The notes under the pieces are model-generated. The model worked only from the letters and a program-made list of their open reading frames with translations, made no database searches and was not told the DNA's origin. This document shows, one piece after another, positions 3,197 to 44,243 of a DNA stretch of 64,000 nt. The translations under genes were made by a program, and so were the position numbers. Origin of the DNA: a virus. The stretch's first letter is position 1; every line of letters begins with the position of its first letter. The stretch lies in the UHGV virus genome UHGV-0090440; one strand, given 5' to 3'.

Positions 3197-4237
3197 ATGA
3201 TGAGTATGAAGTCGATCGAGAAAGAGTACAAACGGTTCCTGCAAACCGCAGAACGGTGGAAAGAGCTGGTGGTCGCAAACTCTGTTTTCCATGATACCAG
3301 TTATGCTGGTGAGGAATTCCGCCATGTTGCATTAACGCATGACCAAAACATATTAGAAGAAGCTGAAAAATGTCTTGCTGAATGGAAAGCCTTCGTTGAC
3401 ATGTGCCGCGATGCCGACGGCAAAGCGTCGAACATTGTTGAGTCCGTATATTCTCCGATCCCATTCATCATTGAGGACACCAATCAAAGCACGCATGTCG
3501 TTGTGCAAAGCGCTACAACAACACGTGCATTTACACGTGAACAATTGCTAAAAAAATACGACAAAATCATAAAGAAAAGCCTGAAAAATAGGGTTTTTTC
3601 TCAAATCGTAGGTGCTCTTGAAGAAGAACAGCGCTTCTTTGAAGCTGAGCCTGAAGGCGAGATCTACCGGGCGCGTAAAGAGGCATATACAGATGTTGTG
3701 CTGACAACAAACATCGAAGGCAGTAATGCCCTTTCTCGCTTTAGAGTTGGCGCACATGGCGCATTGGTTTTCGCAAGACTACCGAAGACAACGATCCCCG
3801 TTGTCAATAATGTTGGTGAACGCCGGAGCATTACAATTTATTCTGGCGTCGAATCGGTACCTTGCAGCCTTCTCGGCGATTTTAACTTATATCGTGTTCG
3901 TGACCTGGAAAAACACCAGCCAAGCTACGTTGCGAAGTCGTATATCTTAAGGAACATCGATATTCGCAATGAAAGCCTTAAGCAGAAATCCGCTAAGATG
4001 CTGGAGGATGCCGATCCGGCTATTCGCCATATCATTGAGCGTAAGATACGTACATCACGTGAAGCAATGGCAAGGCTGGATAAAATGGATCTGGAATTGT
4101 TAGACGTAATGATGGCCTCTGGAGACGACCTGACCGGCATTAAACTGAATGAAGCTCGTAAAAAATACGGCAAAGCAATCGAAGAACGTTACGGATACAC
4201 ATTCCCCCAAACGCAGTACGCCGCGAAGCTCTGGTAA
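3197..4237 (+). CDS. hypothetical protein in the position of the P1 c1 immunity repressor
   Basis: 346-aa ORF (start may be ATG 3206, which has a better-spaced AGGA); divergent from the Cre-like gene, convergent with pacB, flanked by two motif copies, followed by an intrinsic terminator. Function inferred from position only. Confidence 0.55.
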   Translation: MMSMKSIEKEYKRFLQTAERWKELVVANSVFHDTSYAGEEFRHVALTHDQNILEEAEKCLAEWKAFVDMCRDADGKASNIVESVYSPIPFIIEDTNQSTHVVVQSATTTRAFTREQLLKKYDKIIKKSLKNRVFSQIVGALEEEQRFFEAEPEGEIYRARKEAYTDVVLTTNIEGSNALSRFRVGAHGALVFARLPKTTIPVVNNVGERRSITIYSGVESVPCSLLGDFNLYRVRDLEKHQPSYVAKSYILRNIDIRNESLKQKSAKMLEDADPAIRHIIERKIRTSREAMARLDKMDLELLDVMMASGDDLTGIKLNEARKKYGKAIEERYGYTFPQTQYAAKLW

Positions 4238-4246
4238 TCACAACCG

Positions 4247-4272
4247 GCCCCGCATCGCGGGGCTTTATATAT
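4247..4272 (+). terminator. intrinsic terminator
   Basis: GCCCCGC-ATC-GCGGGGC hairpin followed by TTTATATAT; sits between the convergent 3197-4237 and pacB genes. Confidence 0.55.
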
Positions 4273-5773
4273 CCAGATCCGGCATTTCGATATCCGCCAG
4301 AACCTGATCTCGGAAAGTTGCCATTTCGGCACCAATATCTTCATTAGCAGGCACATAGTCCACCAGCATAGTGAAGCAGTAGGTATCCCATCGGTCAGGC
4401 GATTTGATGTTTAGCTTTTGCCGCATGTGCTCTTTGCGCATCATCGCCATTTTCCCTTCTTCATTCATTAAAAAGGGGATTTTTGACGCTTGCTCTGCCG
4501 TTTTAGGGTCACTGTCTATCCGCATACGCCCTGACTTTATGGCATCACGCGCCATGATATTTGCGTAGGCACGCTGATTAACAAATCGCTCCCTGTCTTT
4601 GTTCGCAAACATGGGTTTTCCCCACCGAATACGTACCGGGTTCGCACCACGACGCACCAACTGCGCACACGTATCAGAACCAAAACCATCAGCATCAACC
4701 GCGATTGTTATATTCGGGTATTTTTCCGGCGTACATTCGTTATATATGAAGTCAGCAAAGGCCAATGGGTCCATAGTGCCAGGCATCTCCATTACCTTAA
4801 AGTTAACAACGCGCCGCTTATCCCTGTGACCTGATACCTTGCAGATGTTGAGGACCGACTTATCTCGCCCATTACCAACGTCAGCCGTTGCCACCCATCC
4901 CCAGTTTTTCTCCAACAACACCTTGCGGCGAGCAGAGCGATCGCATTCATCACGACCAAGCAAATAGCCGTTAATTTCTCGTGGGAACTGACCAAGCACC
5001 TTGACCATGTACTCAATAGAATCGCGCCCGCCATATTCCAGAAGCTTCTCCTTGATGAATTGTGGTGTGACGAACGGTGATTCTTCCGAGTTAAGAACAA
5101 TTGCTGTCCAGATCCCTTTCGGGTTGTCTGGGGTTTTTGCTCGAGAATGGTGCGAATCGTAGAAATAACCACTTGGCCTTGTTGGCTGGGATAGCATCAA
5201 CATCCGGTTATCTTCTTCAGTAAGAGCACCGGTCATTACGCCGATCGCCTTATCAGATATACCAGATGCTTCATCCAGAATTAGAAGCAAATGTGCCGCG
5301 TGTTCCCCCGCCAGCGCTTCTTCGTTGCCGAGTCGATAACCTTTGCAGAGAACTTCCCAAATCCCCTTACGGGAGCGCTCATAAAACATGGTGTCAGAGA
5401 GGACAAAATAGGTCTGCAACCACCCATGACGCTTAACTGCATTCGCCCAATACTGTTTAACGTATTTGAATACGCCTGTTTTTACCTGGCCTATCTTGTT
5501 AGCAACAATGATGACACGGGCATCGGGGAACAGGATCATAAAAATCAACAGCAACATCGCGGTAAGGGACGACTTCCCCGTTCCGTGTCCGGACGTGACG
5601 GTAGTCCTACTCCCCGTTTCCTGTACGGACTGAATGATCTGCTGCTGCTGCGGGGAGGGGAACATCCCAAAAATATCGACAACAGCCTGGGTAAAGTTGT
5701 AGCGGTATTTGATTACCATATCGCGCCAGCGTGGATCTCTGGTGACGCATTTAACCTTGCGCCCGCCAGCCAT
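4265..5773 (-). CDS. pacB: terminase large subunit (PacB-like)
   Basis: 502 aa; Walker A SGHGTGKSS, Walker B LLILDEAS, C-terminal acidic nuclease-type region (IAVDADGFG); translationally coupled to the upstream small subunit. Confidence 0.85.
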   Translation of the reverse strand: MAGGRKVKCVTRDPRWRDMVIKYRYNFTQAVVDIFGMFPSPQQQQIIQSVQETGSRTTVTSGHGTGKSSLTAMLLLIFMILFPDARVIIVANKIGQVKTGVFKYVKQYWANAVKRHGWLQTYFVLSDTMFYERSRKGIWEVLCKGYRLGNEEALAGEHAAHLLLILDEASGISDKAIGVMTGALTEEDNRMLMLSQPTRPSGYFYDSHHSRAKTPDNPKGIWTAIVLNSEESPFVTPQFIKEKLLEYGGRDSIEYMVKVLGQFPREINGYLLGRDECDRSARRKVLLEKNWGWVATADVGNGRDKSVLNICKVSGHRDKRRVVNFKVMEMPGTMDPLAFADFIYNECTPEKYPNITIAVDADGFGSDTCAQLVRRGANPVRIRWGKPMFANKDRERFVNQRAYANIMARDAIKSGRMRIDSDPKTAEQASKIPFLMNEEGKMAMMRKEHMRQKLNIKSPDRWDTYCFTMLVDYVPANEDIGAEMATFRDQVLADIEMPDLDI

Positions 5774-7137
5774 TAATCATCCTCCGGCGGTTCTATCGCG
5801 ATATCATCATCTCCGGCGTCATACCCTGCATCAGATGCATCATAATCACCGTAAATTTCAGCCGTTGCCGAAGGGTCAATATCCAGCTCTTCGTCGTTGG
5901 CCTCGAATTCTCCAGCTTTACGCTCGCCATTGCGGTCATAATCTCCGCACCCCAATTCTTCAACAATGGTTGCCACATCCGCCCGGCGCTCTGCCAGCCA
6001 TTGCGGATGGTTAGCCTGAAGCGTTGCAAACTCCCTTGCCTCTTTGTCCAGCTGTTCATCATCAACATCATTGACGTCAGAAACAGGTGGTTCGAGAAGA
6101 GTGATAGCTTTCGCCGCGCGCGCCGCGAGGATAGCCGGGACGCTGACCCCCTGGCGCTCGATGTATTCAGCAACACCGATATCATCCAGTTCCTCGCGCT
6201 CACGCATACGTATAGCGGCGGCGATAACTCTGGCTGCGCGTGCGTCAGCGCCAATGCGATATTCAATCTCTTTGCCACGCTGTTCGGCCTGTAGGCGTGC
6301 TAATTCGAGTTTTTCTCTGGCCTCAGCCTCTTTGAATGCTTGCTGGCGAGCGCTCTGACGAAGCTTTTCATCCCCCTGTCGCAGCTTTTGTTCGGACTGA
6401 TATATAGCTGCCAACCTACTGATAAAATCATTCATGTAGTAGGCCGCGTCACTGATTAGACCGAGAAGGCGCTGCCCAGGGTGCATTCCTTCTGGCTCTT
6501 TATCGCCCAAGGTGTCTATTTCCGCCTGTAGACGTTCGGCCTCCTGATCAACAATGCTTTGATACTGAAGTGCGCGCTCTTGCGCCATTTGAATTGCTAA
6601 CCGCAGGTGTTCTTCTGCGCCGTTCTTCATCATATCGCGAGCAACATTCGTAGTTGGCAATGTGGCACGCTGCACAGCACCGTCAGGGATCATTGCAGAA
6701 GATCCCTCAATTTTTGGGGCGCTTTTATCTTCTTCGGGGATCATTTTCGCCATTTTTTCGCGCAATGATCTCCTGACGGATTCTTTTATCTCATTGTTAT
6801 TATTTGAATTATTTTCATGATCCGAAGTTTTCTTTCTCGGCATACTTCGGAAAGAACCTGCGCCCTGCGAATTGTCAATTTCTGTAAATTTTGTTTTTTC
6901 TGCACCCTCTTCCTGCTTTTTTGTTGCTCTTCCTGCCCGTTTTTTTTCAGGTGATTTGGTGCTTTTTTTTGTTGTCTTTACCTGCGACCGCACCTCATTT
7001 TTTTTCATATTGAGATGCTTTCTGGCTGTATTGAAGCTAAGGCCATGCTCCTCACAGTATTCCTTTACAGTGATCCCTTTTTCTTCACGCAACGCTATAA
7101 AGCGGGCGCGGTGCTCCTCCCAATTAACCAGACTCAT
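5773..7137 (-). CDS. pacA: terminase small / pac-recognition subunit (PacA-like)
   Basis: 454 aa; N-terminal HTH-like region, long charged coiled-coil middle, acidic C-terminus; immediately upstream of the large subunit. Confidence 0.6.
   Translation of the reverse strand: MSLVNWEEHRARFIALREEKGITVKEYCEEHGLSFNTARKHLNMKKNEVRSQVKTTKKSTKSPEKKRAGRATKKQEEGAEKTKFTEIDNSQGAGSFRSMPRKKTSDHENNSNNNNEIKESVRRSLREKMAKMIPEEDKSAPKIEGSSAMIPDGAVQRATLPTTNVARDMMKNGAEEHLRLAIQMAQERALQYQSIVDQEAERLQAEIDTLGDKEPEGMHPGQRLLGLISDAAYYMNDFISRLAAIYQSEQKLRQGDEKLRQSARQQAFKEAEAREKLELARLQAEQRGKEIEYRIGADARAARVIAAAIRMREREELDDIGVAEYIERQGVSVPAILAARAAKAITLLEPPVSDVNDVDDEQLDKEAREFATLQANHPQWLAERRADVATIVEELGCGDYDRNGERKAGEFEANDEELDIDPSATAEIYGDYDASDAGYDAGDDDIAIEPPEDD
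6686..6833. other. candidate pac site
   Basis: Five GATC sites in about 150 bp inside the PacA-like gene, four embedded in TGATCY elements in both orientations; P1 pac is a cluster of Dam-methylatable TGATCA/G hexamers inside pacA (recalled). Confidence 0.35.
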
Positions 7138-7526
7138 AAAGCAACACCACGCTTTTTAACGGCGGCATTCCACAGCTTATTCGCCATGTCCACCAGCTCT
7201 CGTTGCTCTTTTCGCGCCTGTTCGACTGATTTCCTGCTACAGTTTTTAACCAGTAAACTGCCGTATTCAGGGGTTCGCCCACGCACCTTGAACTGATATC
7301 CGTTCAGGCCATGCAACCAGTATTTTCGTGGGTAAACGCGATCATCAAGCTCACAGATTGCCCTGCTTGAACGAACAAAATGACGAATGATGTTAGTTAC
7401 ACTTACTCGTGAGACATGGAGATGAGGGTATTTTTCTTTGGCGAGAATGGTAATTTCAGTGACTGTCAGATAGCAGTCAGCCCTAATCATGATATCCGCA
7501 ATTTCTGCGCTGCTGATTTGTTCCAT
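7134..7526 (-). CDS. hypothetical protein in the position of P1 lpa
   Basis: 130-aa ORF directly upstream of and overlapping the pacA-like start; motif copy about 80 bp upstream. Function inferred from position only. Confidence 0.45.
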   Translation of the reverse strand: MEQISSAEIADIMIRADCYLTVTEITILAKEKYPHLHVSRVSVTNIIRHFVRSSRAICELDDRVYPRKYWLHGLNGYQFKVRGRTPEYGSLLVKNCSRKSVEQARKEQRELVDMANKLWNAAVKKRGVAL

Positions 7527-7604
7527 TAATCCCCCGGGCAGGAAATGACCGAGGGGATGATAATGAGAATGTTAAAATTGTATAGACTGGCAAAAAGATG
7601 ATTG

Positions 7605-7618
7605 TATTAGAAAATTAA
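7605..7618 (+). promoter_or_regulatory. recurrent 14-bp motif site (TATTAGAAAATTAA)
   Basis: Upstream of the 7134-7526 gene; an inverted partial copy (ATCTAAC) lies 8 bp further on. Confidence 0.4.
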
Positions 7619-7634
7619 TACTAAATATCTAACG

Positions 7635-8027
7635 CTACCAGCGAGACAAACGAACAACATGTTTCACTTTTGCGATCCACTTTCCGCGACAACTATTGAT
7701 TACGGCCTGTGCCAGCTTCAAATTGGCTTCAAAATCAGCCTTACTACCATCAGACTCCACCAGCATTCCGCCATCTATTTCTGGTAAACATAGATAATCC
7801 TGCTCAACCTGCAGCGGCATTGATGGCTCTCTGAATGGCGTTACTTGCTCTGCTTTCCAGCGAAAGCTAACCCTCATCCCCCTGGTGGTCATTACCAGAT
7901 AGCCTGTTATAGTGCTTTTATGGCCCACATCAGTACGCGTGGCATTGCATGACACGATCTTACAGTTAGCGATAGACCACTCCATATTGGTGGCCTGTTG
8001 AGTGCTTAATTTGGTAGTCCCGTACAT
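7635..8027 (-). CDS. hypothetical protein
   Basis: 130-aa ORF translationally coupled to the upstream 191-aa ORF. Confidence 0.5.
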   Translation of the reverse strand: MYGTTKLSTQQATNMEWSIANCKIVSCNATRTDVGHKSTITGYLVMTTRGMRVSFRWKAEQVTPFREPSMPLQVEQDYLCLPEIDGGMLVESDGSKADFEANLKLAQAVINSCRGKWIAKVKHVVRLSRW

Positions 8028-8602
8028 CAGAAAGCCTCCCAGTCAGTCGCGATAATATCCACACCAGTTGCAAACCAGTCTGTCTGCGCCTGTAAATCAC
8101 CATTCATCATTACCAGGCGAGGCATCACCATCACATCGCACCCTTCCACAATATCGAATGCCTCTTCCGGCAAGAATTCGAAGAGCTTTTCTTTGCTGCC
8201 AATGCTGCCACGGAACATCGATATATAGCTCCCTTTAGGCCATGATGTCCGCCGGGCATCAAGCCCTTTCATCATCCAGTAAAAAGCCGAGGAAAAAGGG
8301 ATATTCTTTTTGCCAATGATTACATTATTCGCTTCTGTGTACTTCAGGAACTTAACTAACCTTACCATTGACTCGGATAACGCAACGTATGGCTCATGAT
8401 TGATTGCTGACACGCTTACACCGTGCAATCCAACGCTTACCACTGTCATATCGCCGCTCTGTGCGGTTTCGATATTGACGCCTTTGCGAACTAATGAGGC
8501 GTAAAGTTCCTCTCGCTTTTGGGTCCAGCGTTCCCGCCTCCCTATGAAGTCACTCAAAATGAGATCTTCTTCTGCATATGCGTTATCGTTCGCCGTTAAC
8601 AT
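8027..8602 (-). CDS. hypothetical protein
   Basis: 191-aa ORF with AAAAGGAG RBS. Confidence 0.55.
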   Translation of the reverse strand: MLTANDNAYAEEDLILSDFIGRRERWTQKREELYASLVRKGVNIETAQSGDMTVVSVGLHGVSVSAINHEPYVALSESMVRLVKFLKYTEANNVIIGKKNIPFSSAFYWMMKGLDARRTSWPKGSYISMFRGSIGSKEKLFEFLPEEAFDIVEGCDVMVMPRLVMMNGDLQAQTDWFATGVDIIATDWEAF

Positions 8603-31969: not shown

Positions 31970-32582
31970 GCTCATCCTCCAGGCGCGCGATTTCTTCTTT
32001 AAGAGCACGTGTCTTAGCTACTTCCTGAGACAAGGCAGCTTTAACGTTACCCGTATCTTGCATTACTTTGTCTGACTTGCTCTGGAGTTTAGACAGTTTG
32101 TCGTTAGCATTAGCGATATCTTCACGGAGTGCATCACGTGATTCTTTCGCTTCAGCTAATCTCTGAGCGTTGGATTTAACTCCCTGCCGCTTCTTATTTT
32201 CGTCATCAATATTTTTTGCTGCACGAGCAAGTTTTCGAGCTAATGACTTCTGGAAAGAAGTTGCTCCGCGATTAAATAAAGCCGCAAGAGATTGCCCCAA
32301 AGCCGACATTGTTTTTACTGGCTTGAACGGTACTGTTTTACCATTCAGTTTGATCCCAGATATATCACCGGTATCGTTAACCTGAACTTCCATTGTCTGT
32401 TCATCAAGACCAATAAGGGTAAACGTGCGCGTCATGATCCCATCTTTCTTCCTGCCATTACTTGCAGGGACCACCCTCGCTATCTTGTAACCACCTTTGC
32501 TGATTTCTTTGACGAGTTTTGCCAGCCCCTTTTCGTTTAACTCATCATAATTAAGAAGAACATAATTATTCTTATTTGACAT
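31962..32582 (-). CDS. hypothetical protein
   Basis: ORF track start is GTG 32597; ATG 32582 with AAGGAG 6 nt upstream preferred (206 aa). Confidence 0.5.
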   Translation of the reverse strand: MSNKNNYVLLNYDELNEKGLAKLVKEISKGGYKIARVVPASNGRKKDGIMTRTFTLIGLDEQTMEVQVNDTGDISGIKLNGKTVPFKPVKTMSALGQSLAALFNRGATSFQKSLARKLARAAKNIDDENKKRQGVKSNAQRLAEAKESRDALREDIANANDKLSKLQSKSDKVMQDTGNVKAALSQEVAKTRALKEEIARLEDEHD

Positions 32583-33018
32583 CCCAGTCTCCTTCACGCT
32601 TTTCGATCGTAAACTGGCGCTCTATGCAGTCATTGATAGGGAAAATGCGATAAAGCGGATTCAGTCGGCAGTTACCGTTAGTCAATGTGACTTTCAGATC
32701 CCACTTCGTTGGCTCAAGATATTTCGTATCGATGAGCAAATACTCTTCTCTCTCACCGCGTTTTGAGGCGTCAACTGGTCGCGTTTTCCCTGAAATAACC
32801 ACAGATGGATTTTTCAGGTCTTGCAACCAATATTCGATTTGAGCATTGCTGACCCAGCTTCGCTTAACACGTAGCGAAACAGGAAATGCTATAGCGGATT
32901 CTTTCACTACAGCGTCACCAATACTCAAAATCTCAACACTCTTGCGACGAAAAATGAAACGGTCAATGATGGCAACAAATGCCATGATAAAAATGAAATA
33001 ATTCCCAAAGTTACCCAT
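32572..33018 (-). CDS. membrane-anchored protein (antiholin-position candidate)
   Basis: 148 aa with one N-terminal transmembrane helix; coupled to the upstream 108-aa membrane protein. Confidence 0.35.
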   Translation of the reverse strand: MGNFGNYFIFIMAFVAIIDRFIFRRKSVEILSIGDAVVKESAIAFPVSLRVKRSWVSNAQIEYWLQDLKNPSVVISGKTRPVDASKRGEREEYLLIDTKYLEPTKWDLKVTLTNGNCRLNPLYRIFPINDCIERQFTIEKREGDWDVK

Positions 33019-33344
33019 TATTTCTCTCCACCTTTTCCCCCATTCGCTATTACGCTTAAGAGATTCAAGACGTTACTAGCTCTGGACTTCAAGCCCTGTA
33101 AAATTTCTCTTCCGTTGTTACTGGCAATCAGAACAACGCAGAAAATGATACCTTCAGGCCATTCCTGGCTAACCGCCACCCCATACCCCGCAAGCCCGGC
33201 TGTTACCGCAGTAAACAATTCACTCGCAAGATTGAGCAGGGACGCAGAAATGCGCCCGTCTCTAACTCCGAGAAGGAATACGCCGGTTCCACTTAGTAGG
33301 GATGTTATGACTACTACAGCCAGATTTTCATAATCTGCAAACAT
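33018..33344 (-). CDS. holin candidate
   Basis: 108 aa with about three hydrophobic helices and a charged C-terminus (KGGEK); first gene of the long minus-strand operon. Confidence 0.4.
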   Translation of the reverse strand: MFADYENLAVVVITSLLSGTGVFLLGVRDGRISASLLNLASELFTAVTAGLAGYGVAVSQEWPEGIIFCVVLIASNNGREILQGLKSRASNVLNLLSVIANGGKGGEK

Positions 33345-33449
33345 ACCCCTCCAGAAATAACATCTAATGCGCCACTAACTTAGTCAGTTTGTTATTTCCT
33401 TACAGGACATCTTCTAAAATCTCCCTCCTTAACATACAAGGGGGAACAT

Positions 33450-34010
33450 ATGCTTATTGGATACATTCGCGTATCAACTAATGACCAAAACACAGCTTTA
33501 CAACGAAACGCCCTTGAAAGCGCAGGATGTGAGCTAATTTTTGAGGATAAGGCGAGCGGCAAAAAGGCTGAACGCCCTGGGTTAAAAAAGGTTCTCCGTA
33601 TGCTTTCCAGAGGTGACACCCTAGTCGTATGGAAGTTAGATCGTCTTGGGCGCAGTATGCGTCACTTGGTTGTGCTGGTGGAAGAGCTTCGTGACATAGG
33701 CATTAACTTCCGGAGTCTCACTGACTCCATCGACACCAGTACACCAATGGGGCGCTTTTTCTTTCACGTAATGGGGGCGCTGGCAGAAATGGAACGTGAA
33801 CTTATTGTTGAACGTACACGAGCTGGACTTGATGCAGCTCGCGCAGAAGGTCGAATAGGTGGGCGTCGGCCTAAATACCAGGAAGAAACATGGCAGCAAA
33901 TGCGGCGATTGCTGGAGAAGGGCATCCCCCGTAAGCAGGTTGCAATCATCTATGATGTGGCTGTTTCCACTCTTTATAAGAAGTTTCCGGCGTCATCATT
34001 TCAATCCTAA
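33450..34010 (+). CDS. cin: Cin-type serine DNA invertase
   Basis: 186 aa; MLIGYIRVSTNDQ catalytic-serine N-terminus, C-terminal HTH; near-colinear with P1 Cin as recalled; sits directly beside an invertible segment. Confidence 0.9.
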   Translation: MLIGYIRVSTNDQNTALQRNALESAGCELIFEDKASGKKAERPGLKKVLRMLSRGDTLVVWKLDRLGRSMRHLVVLVEELRDIGINFRSLTDSIDTSTPMGRFFFHVMGALAEMERELIVERTRAGLDAARAEGRIGGRRPKYQEETWQQMRRLLEKGIPRKQVAIIYDVAVSTLYKKFPASSFQS

Positions 34011-34147
34011 ACCTTGGTTTAAGAGAACTCGGTACCAGCGGTGAAAAGATCCCCCTGTTGAGCACGGCTAACACATGGAGTGCGCGCCAGACTTTCAACG
34101 GCGGGATCACCGGGGCGCTGACAGGGAACGCCGACACCGCGACGAAA
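34011..34147 (+). repeat. left 137-bp inverted repeat of the C-segment (contains cix core)
   Basis: Exact reverse complement of 40067-40203 by direct comparison; starts with AAACC-TT-GGTTT (34011-34020), a hix/gix/cix-type crossover core. Confidence 0.85.
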
Positions 34148-36463
34148 CTTGCGACGGCAAGAAACATCAACGGTGTTAAATTTGATGGTTCTGTGGACAT
34201 TTCGATACCAACAATTACGTCCAGAGGGCGTGTTACTGCGCTCACCGGTACAACACAAGGTGCTGCTACTGGATTGCAAATGTATGAGGCGTACAACAAC
34301 GGCTATCCTTCTGCTTACGGGAATGTGCTTCATCTTAAGGGCGCAACGGCAGTTGGTGAAGGTGAGTTGTTCATAGGTTGGAGCGGTACAAGTGGCGCTC
34401 ATGCACCTGTACATGTACGTTCGCGACGAGATACTGATACAGCCAGTTGGTCAGAGTGGGCGCAGGTCTACACATCGAAGGATTCCATCCCTGGTGTAAA
34501 TACCACGGGCAACCAGAACACAACCGGAAACGCGGCGTCTGCAACGAAATTACAAACGGCAAGAACTATTGGTGGTGTTTCATTTAATGGCACCGCAAAC
34601 ATCGACCTGCCGGGCGTGAATAAAACAGGCAATCAGAGCACTACCGGCAATGCAGCTACAGCCACAAAACTGCAAACAGCACGCACCATTAATGGGGTTT
34701 CATTTGACGGAACGGCTAATATTTCTCTGTCACCGGCAAATATTGGTTGCCCGGCATCTCCTACTGGTTGGCTTGAAACAGGTGATAATGGAGCATCAAT
34801 AACAACAGAGCAATTAGTGACTCTGCTACGAGATAATGGTGCTTTTAATGCAAAGGTATGGATAGCGCGTTGTGCCTGGGCGTATGCAAATAGTGCATCC
34901 ATACCAGACAGCGAAACAGGATGCGGCATTATTCCACTGGCTGGCGCAGTTATAGAGGTATTTAATAATAGCAGTAGCACGAGTTATTTTACCATTCGTA
35001 TAACAACGGCAACGACGACAAGTGTATCTGGCGCACTCACTAATGCTGAATTTATCTATGTGTCTAATGGCACAAGTTATTCACCAGGATGGCGCAGAGC
35101 GTATAACACTAAAAACAAACCTACTGCGGCTGATGTCGGAGCTTTACCACTATCTGGAGGAGCGTTAACTGGCGGATTAACTGCTGCTGGCGAGATTATT
35201 TCCAAATCGGCGAATGGTCTGCGCATTGCCTATGGCAACTATGGATTCTTTATCCGTAATGACGGCGGCAGCACATATTTCATGCTAACAGCATCAGGAG
35301 ATACGTTAGGTTCATGGAACAGTTTGCGACCGATTACAATTAATAATACCAGCGGTGTTGTGTCTATTGGTAATGGACTAAATGTTACTGGTGGCGTTAA
35401 TGGTAGTTTGAACGGTAATGCAGCGACAGCGACCAAGTTACAAACCGCTAGAACTATAAATGGGGTGTCGTTTGATGGTTCTAAAAATATTGAGCTAACG
35501 GCGGAAGATTTAAATCTTGAGCAAACTGTAGAATTAGCCGCAGGAGCATTGCAGAAAAACCAGAACGGCGCAGATATTCCGGGAAAAGATACCTTCACTA
35601 AAAATATTGGTGCATGTCGCGCTTTTCACAGTTCTATTAGTACAGGTGCAGGGAACTGGACAACGGCACAATTGATTGAATGGCTGGATTCTCAAGGGGC
35701 ATTCAATCACCCATACTGGATGTGCAAATGTTCATGGTCATACGGCAGTAATAAAATTATTACTGACACCGGATGTGGACTTATTCACCTTGCGGGTTGC
35801 GTTATTGAAGTTATGGGCTATAAAGGCGCCATGACCATTCGTATAACCACACCGAGTACCTCTAACGGTGGTGGCACTACGAATGCGCAATTTATATATA
35901 TTAACCACGGTTCAGAGTATTTACCTGGCTGGCGACGTGACTACAACACGAAAAACCAGCAGCCTGCATTTGCTTTAGGGCAGACAGGAAGCATAGTTGG
36001 AAATGACAAAGCTGTTGGATGGAACTCGATTAGCGGGGTTTATAACGCTAATATTGGTGGATCATCTACGTTGATTCTCCATTTTTATATGGGAGCTGGT
36101 AGTTGTCCGGCTGTTCAGTTCCGCGTGAATTATAAGAACGGCGGTATTTATTATCGTTCTGCGCGTGACGGTTATGGTTTTGAAGCCGACTGGTCGGAAT
36201 TTTATACTACAACACGTAAACCATCTGCGGGAGATGTTGGGGCATATACCAAAGCAGAATGTGATTCACGATTTATTACAGGTATTCGATTAGGTACAAA
36301 ATCGTCTGTGCAAACATGGAATGGTCCTGGATGGAACGATAAATCTGGTTATGTTGTTACTGCCTCAATTAACTCAAATAAGGACGAACTTATTGATACA
36401 ACTCAGGCAAGGCCGCTGCAGTATTGTATCAATGGTACATGGTATAACGCGGGAAGTATTTAA
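34058..36463 (+). CDS. alternative tail-fibre C-terminal cassette (Sv'-like), silent in this orientation
   Basis: 801-aa frame beginning with TTG inside the inverted repeat; first 30 aa identical to residues about 420-450 of the 1286-aa fibre; contains [15 protein letters not shown](N/G)GVSFDG repeats. Confidence 0.7.
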
Positions 36464-36465
36464 TT

Positions 36466-36999
36466 ATGCAGCATTTAAAAAACATCAGATCAGGTAATCC
36501 AAAAACTGTTAAACAATATGAATTGACGCGACAATTTGGTGTTGTCTGGTTGTATTCTGAAGACGGTAAAAACTGGTATGAGGAACAAAAGAACTTCCAG
36601 GATGACACTATAAAAATTGCTTACACATCAGATGGAGTTATTGTGGCTATAAATAAAGACGTATCTACAATAAATCCAGAAGGTTTAAGTGTGGTTGAGG
36701 TTGCTGACATTACCGCAAATCGCCGTGCTGACATTTCTGGTAAATGGATGTTCAAAGATGGCGTAGTGATAAAGCGAACTTATACCGAGGAAGAACAGAG
36801 GCAACAAGCTGAAAATGAAAAGCAAAGCCTATTGCAACTTGTCAGGGATAAAACCCAACTGTGGGACTCACAGCTACGGCTGGGCATCATTTCCGATGAG
36901 AATAAACAGAAATTAACCGCGTGGATGCTATATGCGCAGAAAGTAGAATCTACAGATACCTCCATCCTGCCAGTAACGTTTCCCGAACAACCAGAATGA
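36466..36999 (+). CDS. tail-fibre assembly chaperone (U'-like), alternative copy
   Basis: 177 aa; strongly similar to the 37027-37554 product (GNPKTV.QY.LT..F...W...[19 protein letters not shown]). Confidence 0.75.
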
Positions 37000-37026
37000 G
37001 AAAAGGCCCGTTATCGGGCCTTATTT

Positions 37027-37554
37027 TTACTCAGGTTTTTGTGGCCATTCTGGCTTTGACGTATCCACGCGGCTTACAAGAACGCTGTAGCGTTCCCATG
37101 CTTCCAGTCGGCTGTGGTCCTCATCCGTTGCCATATTCAGCCTTACTGCACGCTCTAGTAGTTGAATGACTGATTCAGCATCAGCAAGAAGTCTGGCTTT
37201 CTGATTTTCTACCTGCTGCTGTAATTCCTCTGCCGTATAAATACGTTTAATAACTGCGCCATCCTTAAACATCCAGTTACCAGAAATGTCGGCACGTCGG
37301 TTAGCAGTAATATCCGGCACTTCAACAACACTTAATCCATCCGGTCTGATAGCTGTTACATCCTTTTCCACATAGCGGATGATGTTATCTTTGTCATACG
37401 CTAATTTTATCGTGTCATCCTGGAAGTTCTTTTGTTCCTCATACCAGTTTTTACCGTCTTCTGTAAAAAACCAGATGACATCAAAATGTTTCGTCAGCTG
37501 GTATTGCTCAACTGTTTTTGGATTACCCGCTGTTATATTGATCAAATGCTGCAT
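37027..37554 (-). CDS. tail-fibre assembly chaperone (U-like), expressed copy
   Basis: ORF track start 37629; ATG 37554 preferred ([13 protein letters not shown], 5 bp after the fibre stop), about 175 aa. Confidence 0.75.
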
Positions 37555-37558
37555 AAAT

Positions 37559-40500
37559 TTAAACCTGTGCCACGTTATACCATGTTCCATTAATCTGTTT
37601 CTGAACCGGCCTGTAATATACACCTCCAATATTATCGGCAGAATTCGAGCCGGTATCCTGGACTATAATGCCAGTATAAACGCAGCCTGATGGTGCCTGA
37701 TGCGTCCATGTCGAGGTGTTATTTGCTGGTTTATATGTAGATGCTCCACCAAGTCGCATGTCTCTTACATAACGAGAATCAAAGTTACCGTAATCCGAGG
37801 GGTTAACACGCCCTGTAATATTTATGGTTTTATTACTTTGAATGCTGCCGGAGACAAAGCGCATAACATGAACGTTATTAGCATAAACGTCCAGATTACC
37901 GTCGCCATTTTGTTTAAAGCCCGTGTCATTATCACCCAAAACAATCGAGTTACCGCCAAGAGCACTGGATGTTCCGATGCCCAGTGCACCATTCAATTGA
38001 CCGCCAGATAATGACAACGCCCCAACCTCAGCAGCAGTCGGTTTAATGTGCGAACTGTAAATTACATATACAGTTCCATCTGTCAGGCCTGTTGGTTTAT
38101 TCGCTGTATAAGTTGGTGATGTATGAATCGTTACGCTGGCGTTACTGGTATAATCCCACTGAATATTAACACCTGTGGCGTAATTACCTATTTCAACATA
38201 AACATCATAGGTATCACCGGATGTATTCACCCATGCAAAATTAGTAAATCCAACCGAGGTCCGTCGCCATAATGCACCAGTAATACCTTTTGGATTTCCA
38301 TTTCCTGCACGCAGAACCAGCTCAGAGATGCCTGCTTGCTGCGGGGAGCCAACGTTAAACCCTGCACCACCAATCAGGCTTATGTAAACCACGGAACTGG
38401 CCTGTGGCATGGTTACAGTTGCCAGTTTGAACCATCCAGCACCACCACTAAAAGACATTGTTGTGGAGTTGATCGTGCCTATAGACCGTGGGTTAAGTTC
38501 AATATCTTTAGAACCATCAAACGAGACGCCGTTGATAGTACATGCTGTCTGCAACTTGGTCGCTGTCGCTGCATTACCGGTAGTGTTCTGATTACCTGTT
38601 TTATTCACACCTGGCAGGTCGATATTGGCACTACCATCGAATGACACTCCGCCTATTGTGCGTGCTGTTTGCAGTTTTGTTGCAGTTGCAGCATTACCGT
38701 TCAAACTACCATTGATGCCGCCAGTAACATCCAGACCATGCCCCATGCTTATCCGACCAGTTCTAAGATTAAGCGTAAAGGGACGTAGTGGCCCTATATC
38801 ACCATTTTCCCCCTCATTCTCTCGTGTAGGGATGATATGCAGGCATTCTTCAGAACGACGAAAAATAGCACCAAAAGATGAATTAAATATCCTTAGTGCA
38901 TTGACTGTCGATATTTTTACTTCACTGCTGAAAAGGGCTTTAACAAGGACAGACAAAGCATCCCATTTAAGATTCATCAGGTCTTTTGTTGTGGTGCTCT
39001 GGCGACTTCTCCATTTGAAATATTCATTGCCGTTGTCGCCTGTTTCAAACCACATGTATGAATCAGTATCGCTGTCGGCATCATTTTTAAAACCAATCTT
39101 CGCCCAGTCAGTATTCCGAATCCAGGCAAGGATTGAGTCGTTTTCAAAAGTAAGTCCACCGGACAAGGTATCGCCTGTCTTTTGAACCGCGTTATCAGCC
39201 TTGTTTACCGTTTCCTGTAGATTTAAATCTTCCGCCGTTAGCTCAATATTTTTAGAACCATCAAACGACACCCCATTTATAGTTCTAGCGGTTTGTAACT
39301 TGGTCGCTGTCGCTGCATTACCGGTTGTGTTCTGATTACCTGTTTTATTCACACCTGGCAGGTCGATATTGGCACTACCATCGAATGACACTCCGCCTAT
39401 TGTGCGTGCTGTTTGCAGTTTTGTTGCAGTTGCAGCATTTCCTGAAAGGCTTGAAACAAACTGATGTGAGCAGTAATAACCACGTCCATTTTTAAAATCC
39501 AGAATGGTTTGAGTATTTGTACTTTCTGCTACTGGATCTGTGGCCCCCCACTTATAGGTGGCTTGACCAACGGTATAGTCAGTAGTAGGAACAATTACGT
39601 TCAAGCCCTCCTCAGCAAATATCTTGATAGGAAATGCTCTGGCTTCAACGTAAAATACACTACACAAATCGTCATCTTTCACACTTGAAATAATCGAGTG
39701 TATAGCTCGCTCAGTAGTAGAATATATTGAGAAAAAACCAGCTGCATATGAACCGCGATCAGACCAACCGCCAGGCATAACAAAACCATTAAATTCACAA
39801 TTATTCATGGCGTATCCGCCAGCTGAGGAATAAGTAGTTATCACAACTCGTGAGGCTAATTCATCGGTACTGCCTCCAGATCGGCGAAAGACTATAGGAT
39901 ACCACTTACCGCTTACTGCATTTGCAGGCGCTGAAAAAGTGTATTTTCTCATCCCTTTTTTATTGTCTATTTCGCTTTTGCTGTAAACGTCCAGATCTTT
40001 AGGAGTCAACGTAATGTCAGCCGAACCATCGAACCTGACGCCATTAATGTTTATGGCTGTTTTCAATTTCGTCGCGGTGTCGGCGTTCCCTGTCAGCGCC
40101 CCGGTGATCCCGCCGTTGAAAGTCTGGCGCGCACTCCATGTGTTAGCCGTGCTCAACAGGGGGATCTTTTCACCGCTGGTACCGAGTTCTCTTAAACCAA
40201 GGTATTGGATAACGGCCAGTGTGCTTGTTTTAGCCAGAATATCTCGACCGACTGACGTTAAATCAGTCTGCGCTACCGTATCCTTACCAGTGAAATAAGG
40301 CAGTTTGTTTGCGCCTGTCGCAAGACCAGCAAGCGCGGTTAAAGTTGCATCAAGTGGCTGTTTCCCTGCCAGCGCATTTGTCATTGTTGTCGCAAAGTTC
40401 GGGTCATTGCCCAGTGCTGCTGCAAGCTCATTCAGGGTATCAAGAGCTTCAGGTGATGAGCCGACCAATGCAGAGATAGCAGCCCGTACGTAAGCAGTCG

Positions 40501-41419
40501 TAGCGATCTGCGTATTGTTTGTGCCCTGTGCAGCCGTAGGCGCAGTAGGGACACCCGTTAATGCAGGGCTTGCCAAAGGCGCTTTGAGAGCCAAGGCATT
40601 GTTGATAGTTGTGCTGTAATTCGGGTCGTTATTGATCGCAGCCGCTATTTCTTTCAGCGTATCCAGTGTGCCAGGCGCACCGTTGATAAGTGCAGTTATA
40701 GCTGCCTTAACAAAGGCTGTATTTGCGATCTGCGTGCTGTTTGTGCCTTGTGAGGCCGTAGGCACTGTCGGCGTACCTGACAGATGCGGACTATTGAGCG
40801 GAGCTTTTGTATCAACCAAATCATGAAGAGTTTTGACAGCCAGAGGTGTAGCCGCTTTTCTTTCTTCTGTACTGCTTATTTCATTAGAGAATTCGACACC
40901 AACAGCACGGTTAACTCGGTATTTAAGCACAATCATTTCTTTAGTCACAGCCGTTGCGCCGCCAGGCACGATAACTCGACATAATTCAATTTGATTCTGC
41001 CCAATAGCATTGTCCGTACGCGCGAAAATTCTTGCAGCACTGACAGAAGATGCGCTATCTACCTGTGTCGTTTTTACACCATGTTCAAAATTGGCTTCCA
41101 GCACAATAATGTTGGTAGCCCCAGCCTTTACCGAGACAGTCACATCTTCTATTTGCTGAACGGATATCTGAACATTATTTACATCTACTGAAGCAGCCCC
41201 TTTACCTTCTGAGTTTTCAGAAGTTATACGGACGCTCAACCCTGTGCCGGGAACTGGTTCAAATCCACAGTAAAAGCCCGGCAAAACAATATTTTTAAGT
41301 TTTCTGTTAAGAGCAGAACTACTATAGAGTTCGAAATATTGAACATCAGCAAGCAACGGCTGTGAGACACCAGAGGATAGTGTCATTATGTTGTTCGTTT
41401 TATCAGCACCCATAATCAA
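37559..41419 (-). CDS. tail fibre (constant N-terminal part fused to current variable C-terminal part)
   Basis: 1286 aa; the invertible-segment junction falls at about residue 407-450; repeated [41 protein letters not shown] blocks. Confidence 0.8.
38553..38695. repeat. direct repeat copy A inside the tail-fibre gene
   Basis: About 143 bp, near-identical (one mismatch seen by eye) to 39297-39439. Confidence 0.7.
39297..39439. repeat. direct repeat copy B inside the tail-fibre gene
   Basis: Partner of 38553-38695, 744 bp away and in frame. Confidence 0.7.
40067..40203 (-). repeat. right 137-bp inverted repeat of the C-segment (contains cix core)
   Basis: Reverse complement of 34011-34147; lies inside the tail-fibre gene at the constant/variable junction. 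Confidence 0.85.
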
Positions 41420-41862
41420 CCCTCAACTTGCTCGATTGTCATGAGAATACTGTAACGTTTACCTTTATAGAGGGTGTCTTGCTGGGTGCAAAGCACAGCA
41501 AAAGCCTGTTCCTCAGCATCAACAAGCACAAGCGTGTTAAAGTCGTAAGGCGTGTTATCCGGCATTTTTTCTTGAGGGAAGGCTGCATTGATAGTGATAA
41601 TCCCATCCACACTGGACAATATCAGATCGGACGCAGCAAACTGTTGAGCGTTACTCAATTTAAAATTGAGTGGAATGTCCGCTATATTCCAGCCTCCTGC
41701 ACCATTAGCAGTTACCAGACTAGATTTGCACCAATACGCCTTAGAGATAACAAAACGCGCACCTTTGCCGATCGCCGACTCAGCGCGGCGTGAATAATAG
41801 TAGGAAAGCAATTGCGCCTTATACAGGCGGTTACCATCTCTTACCTTTAAATTTTCAGCCAT
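41416..41862 (-). CDS. tail-fibre-associated structural protein (R-position)
   Basis: 148 aa immediately upstream of, and overlapping, the tail-fibre gene. Confidence 0.4.
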   Translation of the reverse strand: MAENLKVRDGNRLYKAQLLSYYYSRRAESAIGKGARFVISKAYWCKSSLVTANGAGGWNIADIPLNFKLSNAQQFAASDLILSSVDGIITINAAFPQEKMPDNTPYDFNTLVLVDAEEQAFAVLCTQQDTLYKGKRYSILMTIEQVEG

Positions 41863-41956
41863 ACGAACATAGCCCCTTCATAAGCAATGAACCAAAGGAG
41901 AGTATGCTCAGTTTGTGATTTCCGTTGTTCTTCCCCCAAATGCGGGGGAAGAATTA

Positions 41957-42802
41957 TTAAACAGGTTGAAGGTGGTAATCCAAAGGCCACGCATCGAGTG
42001 GGGTTACATCAAGATGTAATTGCTTTTCTGCCGTTCGGTTCGGTATGGCGTTAAGAGAAATATTGTCTACCTGGCAGGAGGTATCACTACGGGATAGCAT
42101 ATCAGCCATACTCTCAGTAACATAAACACCTTCAATTACCGAAACATCCGTAGACAAGCAATTTAGTATTTCTGCCACTTCAGGGAATACAGCACTAAGC
42201 CGAAACGAGACGCCATCAAAAACAATATGCAATGGCAACAAAGGGGCTATTACTGTTTCGAAGTCAGATAACAATTTCTGCACAGCGGCTTCTTTATCCT
42301 GCTCTCCATATGAGCGATATAGCTTGTTCTGATCAACAACGACCAGCCCCCTTGATGTCAGGAAGAACTCACCGAATTGAGCCTGTGCCGTAGGTATTTC
42401 TATTTCGGTCGCAAAATATGAACCATAGGGGTGTTTTTCTATATTTACAGGTGCATACAGCGGTTCCCAACTAACTGGAATACAACCGAATTCACGCCAA
42501 AATGTCTGCTCAATAGGCAAGATAGTGCCTTTAAAGTGCACTTCATCTAAACGTTGCGCCAGCAGCATTGGCCTACGGTCCTTATCTTTTTCAGTGATAA
42601 CGAAAAAACGCCCGTATTCAGCAATGCGGGCATCCATATCCTCACTGTCCATAGTGAAGAAGGATTTTCTGTTACTTATTCTTGTTAATATTGGTTCTAC
42701 TGCCTCATTCCAGACATCCTGTAAAGCGTCTATAAATGCACTCCAGAGATGTGAATCCTGTTTTACTTTAGTTAATCGTTCCTTAAGCCAATTATCTTTC
42801 AT
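41957..42802 (-). CDS. baseplate-associated protein candidate
   Basis: 281-aa ORF between the baseplate J-like gene and the fibre module. Confidence 0.4.
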   Translation of the reverse strand: MKDNWLKERLTKVKQDSHLWSAFIDALQDVWNEAVEPILTRISNRKSFFTMDSEDMDARIAEYGRFFVITEKDKDRRPMLLAQRLDEVHFKGTILPIEQTFWREFGCIPVSWEPLYAPVNIEKHPYGSYFATEIEIPTAQAQFGEFFLTSRGLVVVDQNKLYRSYGEQDKEAAVQKLLSDFETVIAPLLPLHIVFDGVSFRLSAVFPEVAEILNCLSTDVSVIEGVYVTESMADMLSRSDTSCQVDNISLNAIPNRTAEKQLHLDVTPLDAWPLDYHLQPV

Positions 42803-42812
42803 GCTAACCTCA

Positions 42813-44243
42813 TTACGGGTAAGAAATGCTGAACGTTGAAGATTTTACGTTAAGATAAATGAAGTCATTAAAGTAAACAGCATCTTTCATATTTTGTATT
42901 GTTATGTCGTAAGACAGAAACATATCCAGAGACTCTATTACTCGCCAAATATCTTTAACTTTTACCTGTGCATAACATTGTTGGGAATCATCATCACTCT
43001 GTAGTAATAAGCTGAATGATGACGAATCACGGCCAAAATTATCTTCCAACGCTGCTTTAATAGCATTTTGAGCATCGTCTATCAGAACATTTTTACGTAC
43101 AATACCTATAAAATTTATAGTAAATGGCTGTTCATTTGTATCTACATACTCGAACCGCTTGTTCAATTCATTTGGCACATTCTCCAGGGCTTTCAGTATT
43201 TCTGATTTTAGCTGAGCCTGGCTTACACCCGGCTTATGTCCGCAAAAGAAAATTTTGTTGATGTTTCGAACGTCAAACCCAGTTATTTTCTCTTGTAACG
43301 CTTCGCCCCAAACGTTCAACCATGAAGTTCCATGAACAACATTCTGAATGAATTGGCGATAATCACCGCCCCATACCACTTGTTCATCGTATGCAACATA
43401 ATACTGAGCACGATTTCGAGTTTCTTCTGTAGTTTCCATACCACTACCACCGGTAATGATCGAATCAGTTTTAAACTCTAGTGACTCCACATATTGAGCG
43501 ATATTTCCAGCCGGTTCTAACTTTTGTCCTTCAGCCAAAGTATAGTCGCCAAGGCTAGCCATAACATCGATTCGAACCTGACAGCCTGCTGGAGGCATCA
43601 TACCCATAGAACCATCACCAAACTTGACTCCAAGTTGTTCTGTAGGTTTATATGCCAATGAATAGTGCTTACTCTTGTCTCTGGACATTCTAAATAATGG
43701 GTTATATGTCCATTTTTCTTCTACTCCATCTGTAATAACATAAACATCCAGGCTAGAGACTTCTTTTGTTAACTCTCTGGAAAGCAACAATGTCAGAAAT
43801 AAAGTTTCCTTCTCAATATCAAATGTAATGCTAACAGCTTCATGCTGTTTAGTTTCTACGCCAGAAACAGTTCCTCCAGCAGGAATTACAACACTGTTAA
43901 TAATTGCCAAAGGTGTTTGGTCATTGGCAAGCAATTCAGCCCCGGCTGGTAACGTAATATCCCGATCAGTTTTATTGGTTATAGACGTTGTTCCGTATGA
44001 AGCACTAACAAATCGCCCTACGTAGCCACGGTCTTCAGCAACCGCTAAAATACTTGAGCGACGCGTTGCCGTTGAAATAAGTCCCTCAGTGAGGCCGCGG
44101 CTTGCAAATGTACGGGCAATATAAATAAGCTGCGATCCGAATATAGCGTGCATCTGCACAAACTGACTATTTACAAATCGTGACCACCATGTGTTTTCAT
44201 TTAACTTGGCGTTAAATTTGTCCAGTAATTCTGTAATCGTCAC
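42813..44243 (-). CDS. baseplate J-like protein
   Basis: 476 aa; N-terminal region (ILAVAEDRGYVGRFVSASYGTTSIT) fits the Baseplate_J family pattern; overlaps the upstream gene (ATGA-type coupling). Confidence 0.55.
   Translation of the reverse strand: MTITELLDKFNAKLNENTWWSRFVNSQFVQMHAIFGSQLIYIARTFASRGLTEGLISTATRRSSILAVAEDRGYVGRFVSASYGTTSITNKTDRDITLPAGAELLANDQTPLAIINSVVIPAGGTVSGVETKQHEAVSITFDIEKETLFLTLLLSRELTKEVSSLDVYVITDGVEEKWTYNPLFRMSRDKSKHYSLAYKPTEQLGVKFGDGSMGMMPPAGCQVRIDVMASLGDYTLAEGQKLEPAGNIAQYVESLEFKTDSIITGGSGMETTEETRNRAQYYVAYDEQVVWGGDYRQFIQNVVHGTSWLNVWGEALQEKITGFDVRNINKIFFCGHKPGVSQAQLKSEILKALENVPNELNKRFEYVDTNEQPFTINFIGIVRKNVLIDDAQNAIKAALEDNFGRDSSSFSLLLQSDDDSQQCYAQVKVKDIWRVIESLDMFLSYDITIQNMKDAVYFNDFIYLNVKSSTFSISYP

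Follow-up and report, generated by a model that had tools for sequence, protein, structure and literature searches.

Repeated linker units between the tail-fibre modules of a D6-like phage-plasmid as probable substrates for Cin-independent recombination

Mosaic tail fibres with motif-bounded exchange have been described since the early 1990s in P2, Mu, P1, p15B, lambda and the T-even phages. Exchange at conserved motifs among the P2 H, Mu S, P1 S and lambda Stf fibres is said to have been treated by Haggard-Ljungquist in 1992, by Sandmeier, Iida and Arber in 1992 and by Sandmeier in 1994, and the His-box motifs of T-even gp37 reportedly act in mosaic fibre evolution (Tetart, 1996 and 1998). 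The first three of these papers are listed in PMC3945230. In P1 and D6, the fibre variants lie in an invertible C-segment with an adjoining cin gene, the constant part of the fibre gene (Sc) outside the segment, and two convergent cassettes, Sv-U and Sv′-U′, inside it. A 64,000-nucleotide stretch of the virus genome UHGV-0090440 (hereafter, the window) has the same layout, with identical cixL and cixR cores. An initial annotation had placed its expressed and silent fibre cassettes in a cin/cix invertible segment, and cin, the cix sites and the convergent layout indeed match P1. Positions 42000-64000 share 95.7% identity with phage D6 and 97.8% with an E. coli plasmid. The backbone is that of a D6-like phage-plasmid, and the tail-fibre cassettes sit in an invertible segment of the P1 (cin/cix) type. 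Here, we analyze the direct and inverted repeats within its fibre cassettes.

We conclude, with a probability of roughly three in four, that these repeats are copies of a conserved fibre linker (M) located between modules, that the allele was recently assembled or homogenised at M, and that the repeats are ordinary substrates for general recombination, which is independent of Cin. The expressed tail-fibre gene S (37559..41419, minus strand) is an open reading frame of 1286 codons from TTG 41419, with a likely start at ATG 41413, and it matches PHROG tail-fibre families. The initial annotation described a near-perfect 143-bp direct repeat in frame within this gene, which is confirmed: 38553-38695 and 39297-39439 agree at 142 of 143 positions, start 744 bp (3 × 248) apart, and share perfect runs of 113 and 29 nt with one synonymous mismatch between them. 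The similarity reaches 203 nt (38496-38698 versus 39240-39442, 189/203), so that each near-perfect core belongs to a longer unit on the minus strand: copy 1 (38496..38698), composed of M2a, a linker and M2b, and copy 2 (39240..39442), composed of M1a, a linker and M1b. Both copies lie in the frame of S and encode the same peptide, and a crossover between them corresponds to exactly 248 codons. Tandem Repeats Finder reported none in 33000-42000, owing to the 744-bp spacing of the copies, whose unit does not recur in tandem in the window.

The silent cassette contributes the inverted copy. The reverse complement of 35413-35439 is found exactly at 38553-38579 and 39297-39323 and at no other site of the window, where the chance expectation for exact 27-mer matches in 64 kb is approximately 2e-7. 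The 27-bp inverted identity to the start of both direct copies had been recognized at the outset, but its extent was understated. The match to copy 2 is perfect over 105 nt (35413-35517 versus 39219-39323) and reaches 114/118 when the M2′ unit of the silent cassette (35413..35530, plus strand) is compared with 39206-39323, these two stretches being the arms of the inverted repeat. The match to copy 1 is perfect over 27 nt (38553-38579) and amounts to 72/84 overall. A further diverged copy at 34526-34723, within the doubled unit M1a′-M1b′ of the silent cassette (34526..34729, plus strand), is 75-77% identical to the others at the nucleotide level.

Translation revealed that all these repeats are copies of a 28-aa motif, M, which is often doubled with a 40-aa period. 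M is present nine times, at the module borders of both cassettes, and flanks modules A, B, T, A′, B′ and T′. The order in S is Sc-M0-A-MM-B-MM-T, with M units starting at 40090, 39442, 39322, 38698 and 38578 and with modules A (39443-40009), B (38699-39239) and T (37559-38495) on the minus strand. The silent cassette Sv′ (34058..36463, plus strand) is an 801-codon open frame with no constant part upstream and with Pfam matches to Gp34_trimer and gp37_C. Its order is M0′-A′-MM-B′-M-T′, with M units starting at 34124, 34526, 34646 and 35414 and with modules A′ (34210-34525), B′ (34730-35412) and T′ (35531-36463) on the plus strand. M0 (40007..40090, minus strand) and M0′ (34124..34207, plus strand) lie inside a cix-proximal inverted repeat of 201 nt (34004-34204 / 40010-40210, 90% identical). 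Module B, the 180 aa between the direct copies, is unique within S. Its alignment with the Mu tail fibre S (PDB 5YVQ) covers residues 156-338 (E = 7e-68), and that of the C-terminal tip of T covers 424-503; B′ matches the Pfam gp34 trimerisation domain. The predicted gain or loss of 248 codons is correct, but the notion of a 248-aa repeat module is not, as only the doubled linker of approximately 68 aa is repeated and the 180 aa are a unique Mu-S-like domain. Hits to 25 PHROG tail-fibre families mark the M peptide as an element that is widespread in fibres. Among PDB sequences, M had weak matches only, to the C-terminus of phage L Dec (E = 0.04) and to a phage tail fibre gp47.

The relatives used for comparison comprise P1, D6, eight plasmid regions (including L003-L005, L086, L087, L110 and L111), 80 IMG/VR loci retrieved via Cin and 22 retrieved via an exact 26-mer described below. 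Conservation of the peptide across 25 PHROG families is strong enough to raise the question of whether purifying selection on the protein motif alone, with no recombination past or future, accounts for the identity of the copies. However, in the nucleotide identity matrix of the nine copies, M pairs coding for the same or nearly the same peptide are mostly identical at 56-62 of 84 nt (67-74%), and two pairs stand apart, Sv M1a/M2a at 83/84 and Sv′ M2/Sv M1b at 84/84. Among 62 distinct M units of related C-segments, pairwise identity has a median of 56/84 and reaches 82/84 at the 99th percentile. Because copies with the same peptide otherwise differ this much, protein constraint was rejected as the source of the near-identity; motif-bounded indels and module swaps in relatives also contradict this explanation, which we regard as highly improbable. 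The matrix instead points to recent recombination or gene conversion as the origin of the near-identity of the three M copies.

When the M-M units were aligned together with their 60-nt flanks, they formed a patchwork in which different upstream and downstream haplotypes are joined around a common 26-27-mer, GGTAATGCAGCGACAGCGACCAAGTT. It is the start of the second M unit and the same sequence as the 27-mer noted initially. The rows that share GGTAATGCAGCGACAGCGACCAAGTT show at least four haplotypes in their upstream halves and two in their downstream halves, as would result from crossovers at this place. In L003, L086 and L109, which hold the closest relatives of module A, the first unit after A is of another haplotype; in the window, the unit after A has the copy 1 haplotype. 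Across the aligned region, flanks included, copy 1 plus T does not differ from the matching stretch of L102, where the unit lies before T. This is most simply explained by a conversion tract of approximately 110 nt between the direct copies, or by parents that already shared the haplotype; in both cases, the allele of the window was shaped by recombination at M.

The same alignment bears on whether M, with its common 26-27-mer, is a selected recombination device, that is, a layer of shuffling by homology that is added to the Cin switch and possibly aided by phage functions. Perfectly identical inverted internal M units amid non-homologous modules recur in independent C-segments (the window, L004 and L005), identical inverted internal units are also present in L007 and L028, the 26-mer is invariant across rows with different flanking haplotypes, and it occurs exactly in 22 IMG/VR stretches. 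In contrast, among the loci retrieved via cin, a search that did not depend on the motif, the exact 26-mer is present in just 4 of 10 distinct second-position M units, and there is free variation at third codon positions. The 26-mer is a shared haplotype and not a universally conserved site, so no selection at the DNA level is claimed. The best inverted internal pair is below 70/84 in 6 of 16 genomes, the rows of the haplotype alignment were chosen by similarity to the window and are biased in that respect, gene conversion between repeats needs no selection, and the benefit is doubtful since no new tips are created. We therefore consider a selected device unlikely. It is similarly improbable, although worth stating, that the doubled M is a maintained homology cassette that serves as a second, recombinase-independent switching layer in Cin-type phage-plasmids. 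If this were true, identical M units in both orientations would let general recombination re-pair shafts and tips and resize the shaft at frequencies that matter within one lysate.

The involvement of Cin itself was assessed with a weight matrix built from the four cix half-sites of the window. cixL (CAATCCTAAACC TT GGTTTAAGAGAA; 34002..34027) has a 20-nt core (34005-34024) equal to the annotated cixL of P1 and D6, and cixR (TTCTCTTAAACC AA GGTATTGGATAA; 40187..40212) has a core (40190-40209) equal to cixR of P1 and D6; together, they form two inverted 26-bp sites with a 2-bp core at the segment ends. cixL scores 28.5 bits, the highest value in the window, cixR scores 28.1 bits, and the next best site scores 15.2 bits. 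Within the M repeats, the top-scoring 26-mers have values from −1.4 to 0.7 bits, at ranks 398-1031 of 63974 window positions. No further site within five mismatches of the 20-nt cix core is present in 32000-43000, and the 26-27-mer is without dyad symmetry. The mismatch and matrix scans gave only the two true cix sites, and on this basis we rejected the repeats as further substrates of Cin, whether as quasi-cix sites or as additional crossover sites like those of p15B, whose Min system has six. Cin reportedly uses quasi-sites at low frequency (Iida and Hiestand-Nauer, 1986-87), and the closest backbone relative carries a multi-cassette locus in place of the C-segment. De Paepe et al. (2014; PMC3945230) cite Sandmeier 1994 for invertases that drive tail-fibre exchanges. 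Weighed against the scores, these points leave a Cin role very unlikely. Because the repeats are without a cix-like site, any rearrangement would use general homologous recombination or replication slippage instead of Cin. Two weak matches were recorded in the scan. The best cix-like 26-mer beyond the true sites, at 5376-5401 (15.2 bits), is probably due to chance; a second, at 38476-38501 (8.1 bits, rank 10), overlaps the distal edge of copy 1 and is treated as chance because the other copies have no counterpart.

The direct homology (113 bp perfect) and the inverted homology (105 bp perfect) would provide substrates for recombination of the RecA type or by replication slippage. Perfect homologies of approximately 100 bp are well above the minimum of approximately 25 bp for RecA-dependent exchange in E. 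coli. A crossover between the direct repeats would remove 744 bp in frame, including B, and leave S as Sc-A-MM-T, and the reciprocal event would duplicate B in frame. An inversion between the internal inverted arms, which lie within the C-segment, would place tip T′ with its chaperone U′ behind the A shaft and, in the same event, tip T with its chaperone U on an A′-B′-B shaft. Both predicted inversion products are open in frame, and each tip would stay linked to its own chaperone. Such rearrangements would alter the composition and length of the shaft and would be predicted to leave the set of two receptor-binding tips unchanged. We infer that rearrangement would proceed at a measurable rate in this phage, that general recombination enzymes would be involved and that the products would work.

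Architectures that correspond to these products occur in nature. Alignment of the plasmid NZ_CP074369.1 with the window yields three collinear blocks; within Sv, the blocks overlap on exactly the 203-nt repeat with a shift of exactly 744 bp, and within Sv′, they overlap on M with a motif-to-motif shift of 888 bp. At least six plasmids besides NZ_CP074369.1 have an Sv of 1908 bp (2652 minus 744), and a fibre exactly 744 bp shorter with a single repeat copy is found in at least nine PLSDB plasmids and several IMG/VR contigs. Approximately ten PLSDB plasmids match the synthetic deletion junction A-MM-T over its full length and without interruption, at approximately 90-95%, and A-MM-T is also present in the IMG/VR loci L010, L018, L020, L093-L095, L098 and L099. 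An uninterrupted 100% match to the predicted inversion junction A-MM-T′ lies in NZ_CP150020.1, which has A(99%)-MM-T′ in one cassette and A′-M-T(96%) in the other, the tips being swapped relative to NZ_CP074369.1. In the searches with the inversion junctions, a contiguous A-MM-T′ was found once, at 89.7%, and B-MM-T′ solely in a form that carries approximately 830 nt of inserted sequence. The homology breakpoints of many plasmids fall at window positions 38492 and 39439, which are the repeat edges.

Other relatives combine the same modules differently. Tip T sits behind A, B, a B′-like module or A′ in different relatives, always via M. A-MM-B is contiguous in L109 up to the contig end, 28 nt before the second repeat, and the end of B is followed by MM-T in L087. 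Further orders are A′-MM-B′-M...MM-T (L102), B′-like-MM-T (L087) and T(1-480)-B′-like-MM-B (L004). L110 (NZ_CP045278.1, pLAU-OXA1), a 111.7-kb plasmid with no invertible segment, has B-M-T with one M versus two in the window. The presence of window modules on this non-invertible backbone indicates that the same parts circulate between phage-plasmid families. The number of M units per cassette ranges from 1 to 7 among relatives, with arrays of two to five units. As a side observation on L110, a single 1452-aa fibre gene (4068-8426) chains B, T(1-480), a B′-like domain and T′ via M units. Separately, L096 (765-1286) and L097 (IMG genome 2585427777) carry five tandem 40-aa M units between A and T, for which Tandem Repeats Finder gave a period of 120 nt, 4.3 copies and 75% matches, as in an old array and not a recent amplification.

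The initial expectation that the inverted copies supply additional inversion substrates outside the cix sites is partly borne out by the in-frame products and by the A-T′ junction of NZ_CP150020.1, with the correction that these repeats are internal to the C-segment and distinct from Cin sites. Likewise, the expectation that the repeats could drive secondary rearrangements holds at the level of architecture, through the 744-bp-shorter fibres and the A-T′ junction, and only by way of relatives.

Several observations weigh against our reading of the repeats as recombination substrates. The evidence consists of assembled sequences, none of which shows a rearrangement of this molecule itself. The natural alleles of the product type are 83-95% identical to the window and none is a direct derivative; no close derivative of the window allele was found, the best match to the predicted deletion product being 95.2%. 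The relatives thus document such exchange on an evolutionary timescale and not its frequency in this phage. No duplicated-B allele was found in the three BLAST collections, and no record in them covers at least 80% of the full A-MM-B-MM-T arrangement, so that the longer fibre may have arisen by insertion or the shorter ones by deletion. The limited occurrence of the exact 26-mer among second-position units, given above, belongs with these points.

The last of the BLAST results also bears on the possibility that A-MM-B-MM-T is an assembly chimera, in which two co-resident fibre alleles were joined at the 113 bp of perfect identity. Among thousands of records, no other has the full arrangement, the repeat is as long as typical assembly k-mers, and IMG/VR contigs often break at this locus, including L109 just short of the second repeat. 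However, each junction is seen elsewhere independently (A-MM-B in L109, B-end-MM-T in L087 and B-M-T in L110), a single synonymous base and specific 3′ parts distinguish the two copies, and the frame of 1286 codons is intact. The silent cassette, moreover, shows a parallel and independent 888-bp expansion from motif to motif that is 99.5% identical to L009. On these grounds, we judge a chimera to be quite unlikely.

Assembly breaks at this locus were also recorded in their own right. Among the P1-like IMG/VR contigs, 7 of 20 stop within 1.5 kb past cixL (the loci concerned are L006, L009, L012, L021, L023, L024, L026 and L028), and L028, a 5.3-kb contig, has cin at both ends in inverted orientation. 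Contig ends near cixL, together with L028, indicate that short-read assemblies evidently break or mis-join at the invertible segment.

The remaining features of the locus conform to the P1 plan. The serine DNA invertase gene cin (33450..34010, plus strand) matches Pfam Resolvase (E = 3e-50) and HTH_7 and shares 95-99% nucleotide identity with cin of P1, D6 and relatives (95% with P1 cin). Within cin, an enhancer-like stretch (33468-33539) equals the annotated P1 enhancer at 68 of 72 positions, a match by sequence only. The invertible C-segment (34015..40199) is 6185 bp long, with borders set by homology to the annotated P1 crossover points; its length among relatives is 3360-6947 bp. The constant part Sc (40211-41419) lies outside the segment, and inside it, Sv and U on the minus strand converge with Sv′ and U′ on the plus strand. 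U′ (36466..36999, plus strand), the tail-fibre assembly chaperone for T′, matches Pfam Caudo_TAP (E = 6.5e-36). U (37027..37554, minus strand), the chaperone for T, has an open translation of 175 aa and is 100% identical to the annotated U of NZ_CP074369.1. Between the convergent U′ and U, a hairpin (37003..37022) with a perfect 8-bp stem and T-runs on both strands resembles a bidirectional terminator. Both orientations of the C-segment relative to cin occur in nature for the same segment type (L003 and L010 versus L018 and L020), in assemblies other than the molecule of the window.

Two side observations concern the constant part and the closest backbone. Sc holds two tandem 74-aa repeats (approximately 40804-40595 and 40582-40373, minus strand) that are identical at 45/70 aa and 130/210 nt and are the equivalents of the annotated P1 b1/b2 elements. 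In L015, L086 and L097, double Sc matches offset by 222 nt suggest a third copy, and the length of Sc also varies with repeat number. The closest backbone relative, L111 (NZ_CP135715.1, 84000-93100; 97.8% over window 42000-64000), has no Cin-type C-segment. After its S gene lie six short opposite-strand segments annotated as phage tail protein, of 429-486 nt, which look like a multi-cassette locus of the p15B Min or shufflon type; near-identical backbones thus carry different kinds of fibre-switching region.

Taken together, the fibres of the P1/D6 type are modules strung on a repeated 40-aa linker, and every difference observed among the relatives falls on this linker. For annotation, fibre genes of very unequal length can be read as the same parts in other numbers, and the breaks and possible mis-joins in assemblies of such plasmids become easier to interpret. 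The linkers would also offer natural in-frame splice points for the engineering of chimeric P1-type fibres. The view of the Cin switch is unchanged, and as no new receptor-binding tips arise, the biological weight of the repeats in this phage is probably modest.

Compared with P1, whose C-segment measures 4256 bp versus 6185 bp in the window, the inverted repeats are organized differently. The window arms 35413-35530 and 39206-39323 are homologous to L001 3234-3350 and 6357-6473, where the 0.6-kb inverted repeats of P1 have their inner ends. The long inverted repeat of P1 is split in the window into the 201-nt cix-proximal part and an inner island of 105-118 nt, and the modules between the split parts are A in one cassette and A′-MM-B′ in the other; the split-repeat island structure is also present in L004 and L005. 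P1 and D6 lack the direct repeat of the window, the expressed cassette of which has an extra module B between near-identical doubled linkers. In Mu S (5YVQ), the residues before the B-like domain do not match M, whereas in the window B lies between doubled M linkers. Two recent surveys of P1-like and D6-like plasmids present the inversion region as the most divergent part and do not describe motif M. The p15B Min system and the R64 shufflon are alike in outcome, as a constant part is re-paired combinatorially with several 3′ parts. However, they use several recombinase crossover sites, whereas the window has only two cix sites and its repeats are not cix-like. As its full A-MM-B-MM-T arrangement is absent from the three BLAST collections, the window carries a new allele, and motif-bounded fibre mosaicism itself is long known: as in the mosaic fibres described previously, short motifs stand at the module borders, breakpoints fall on the motifs, modules are recombined across unrelated backbones and the number of motifs varies. 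The difference is that here the motif copies are present in both orientations within an invertible segment, and hence the same homology could yield inversions as well as deletions.

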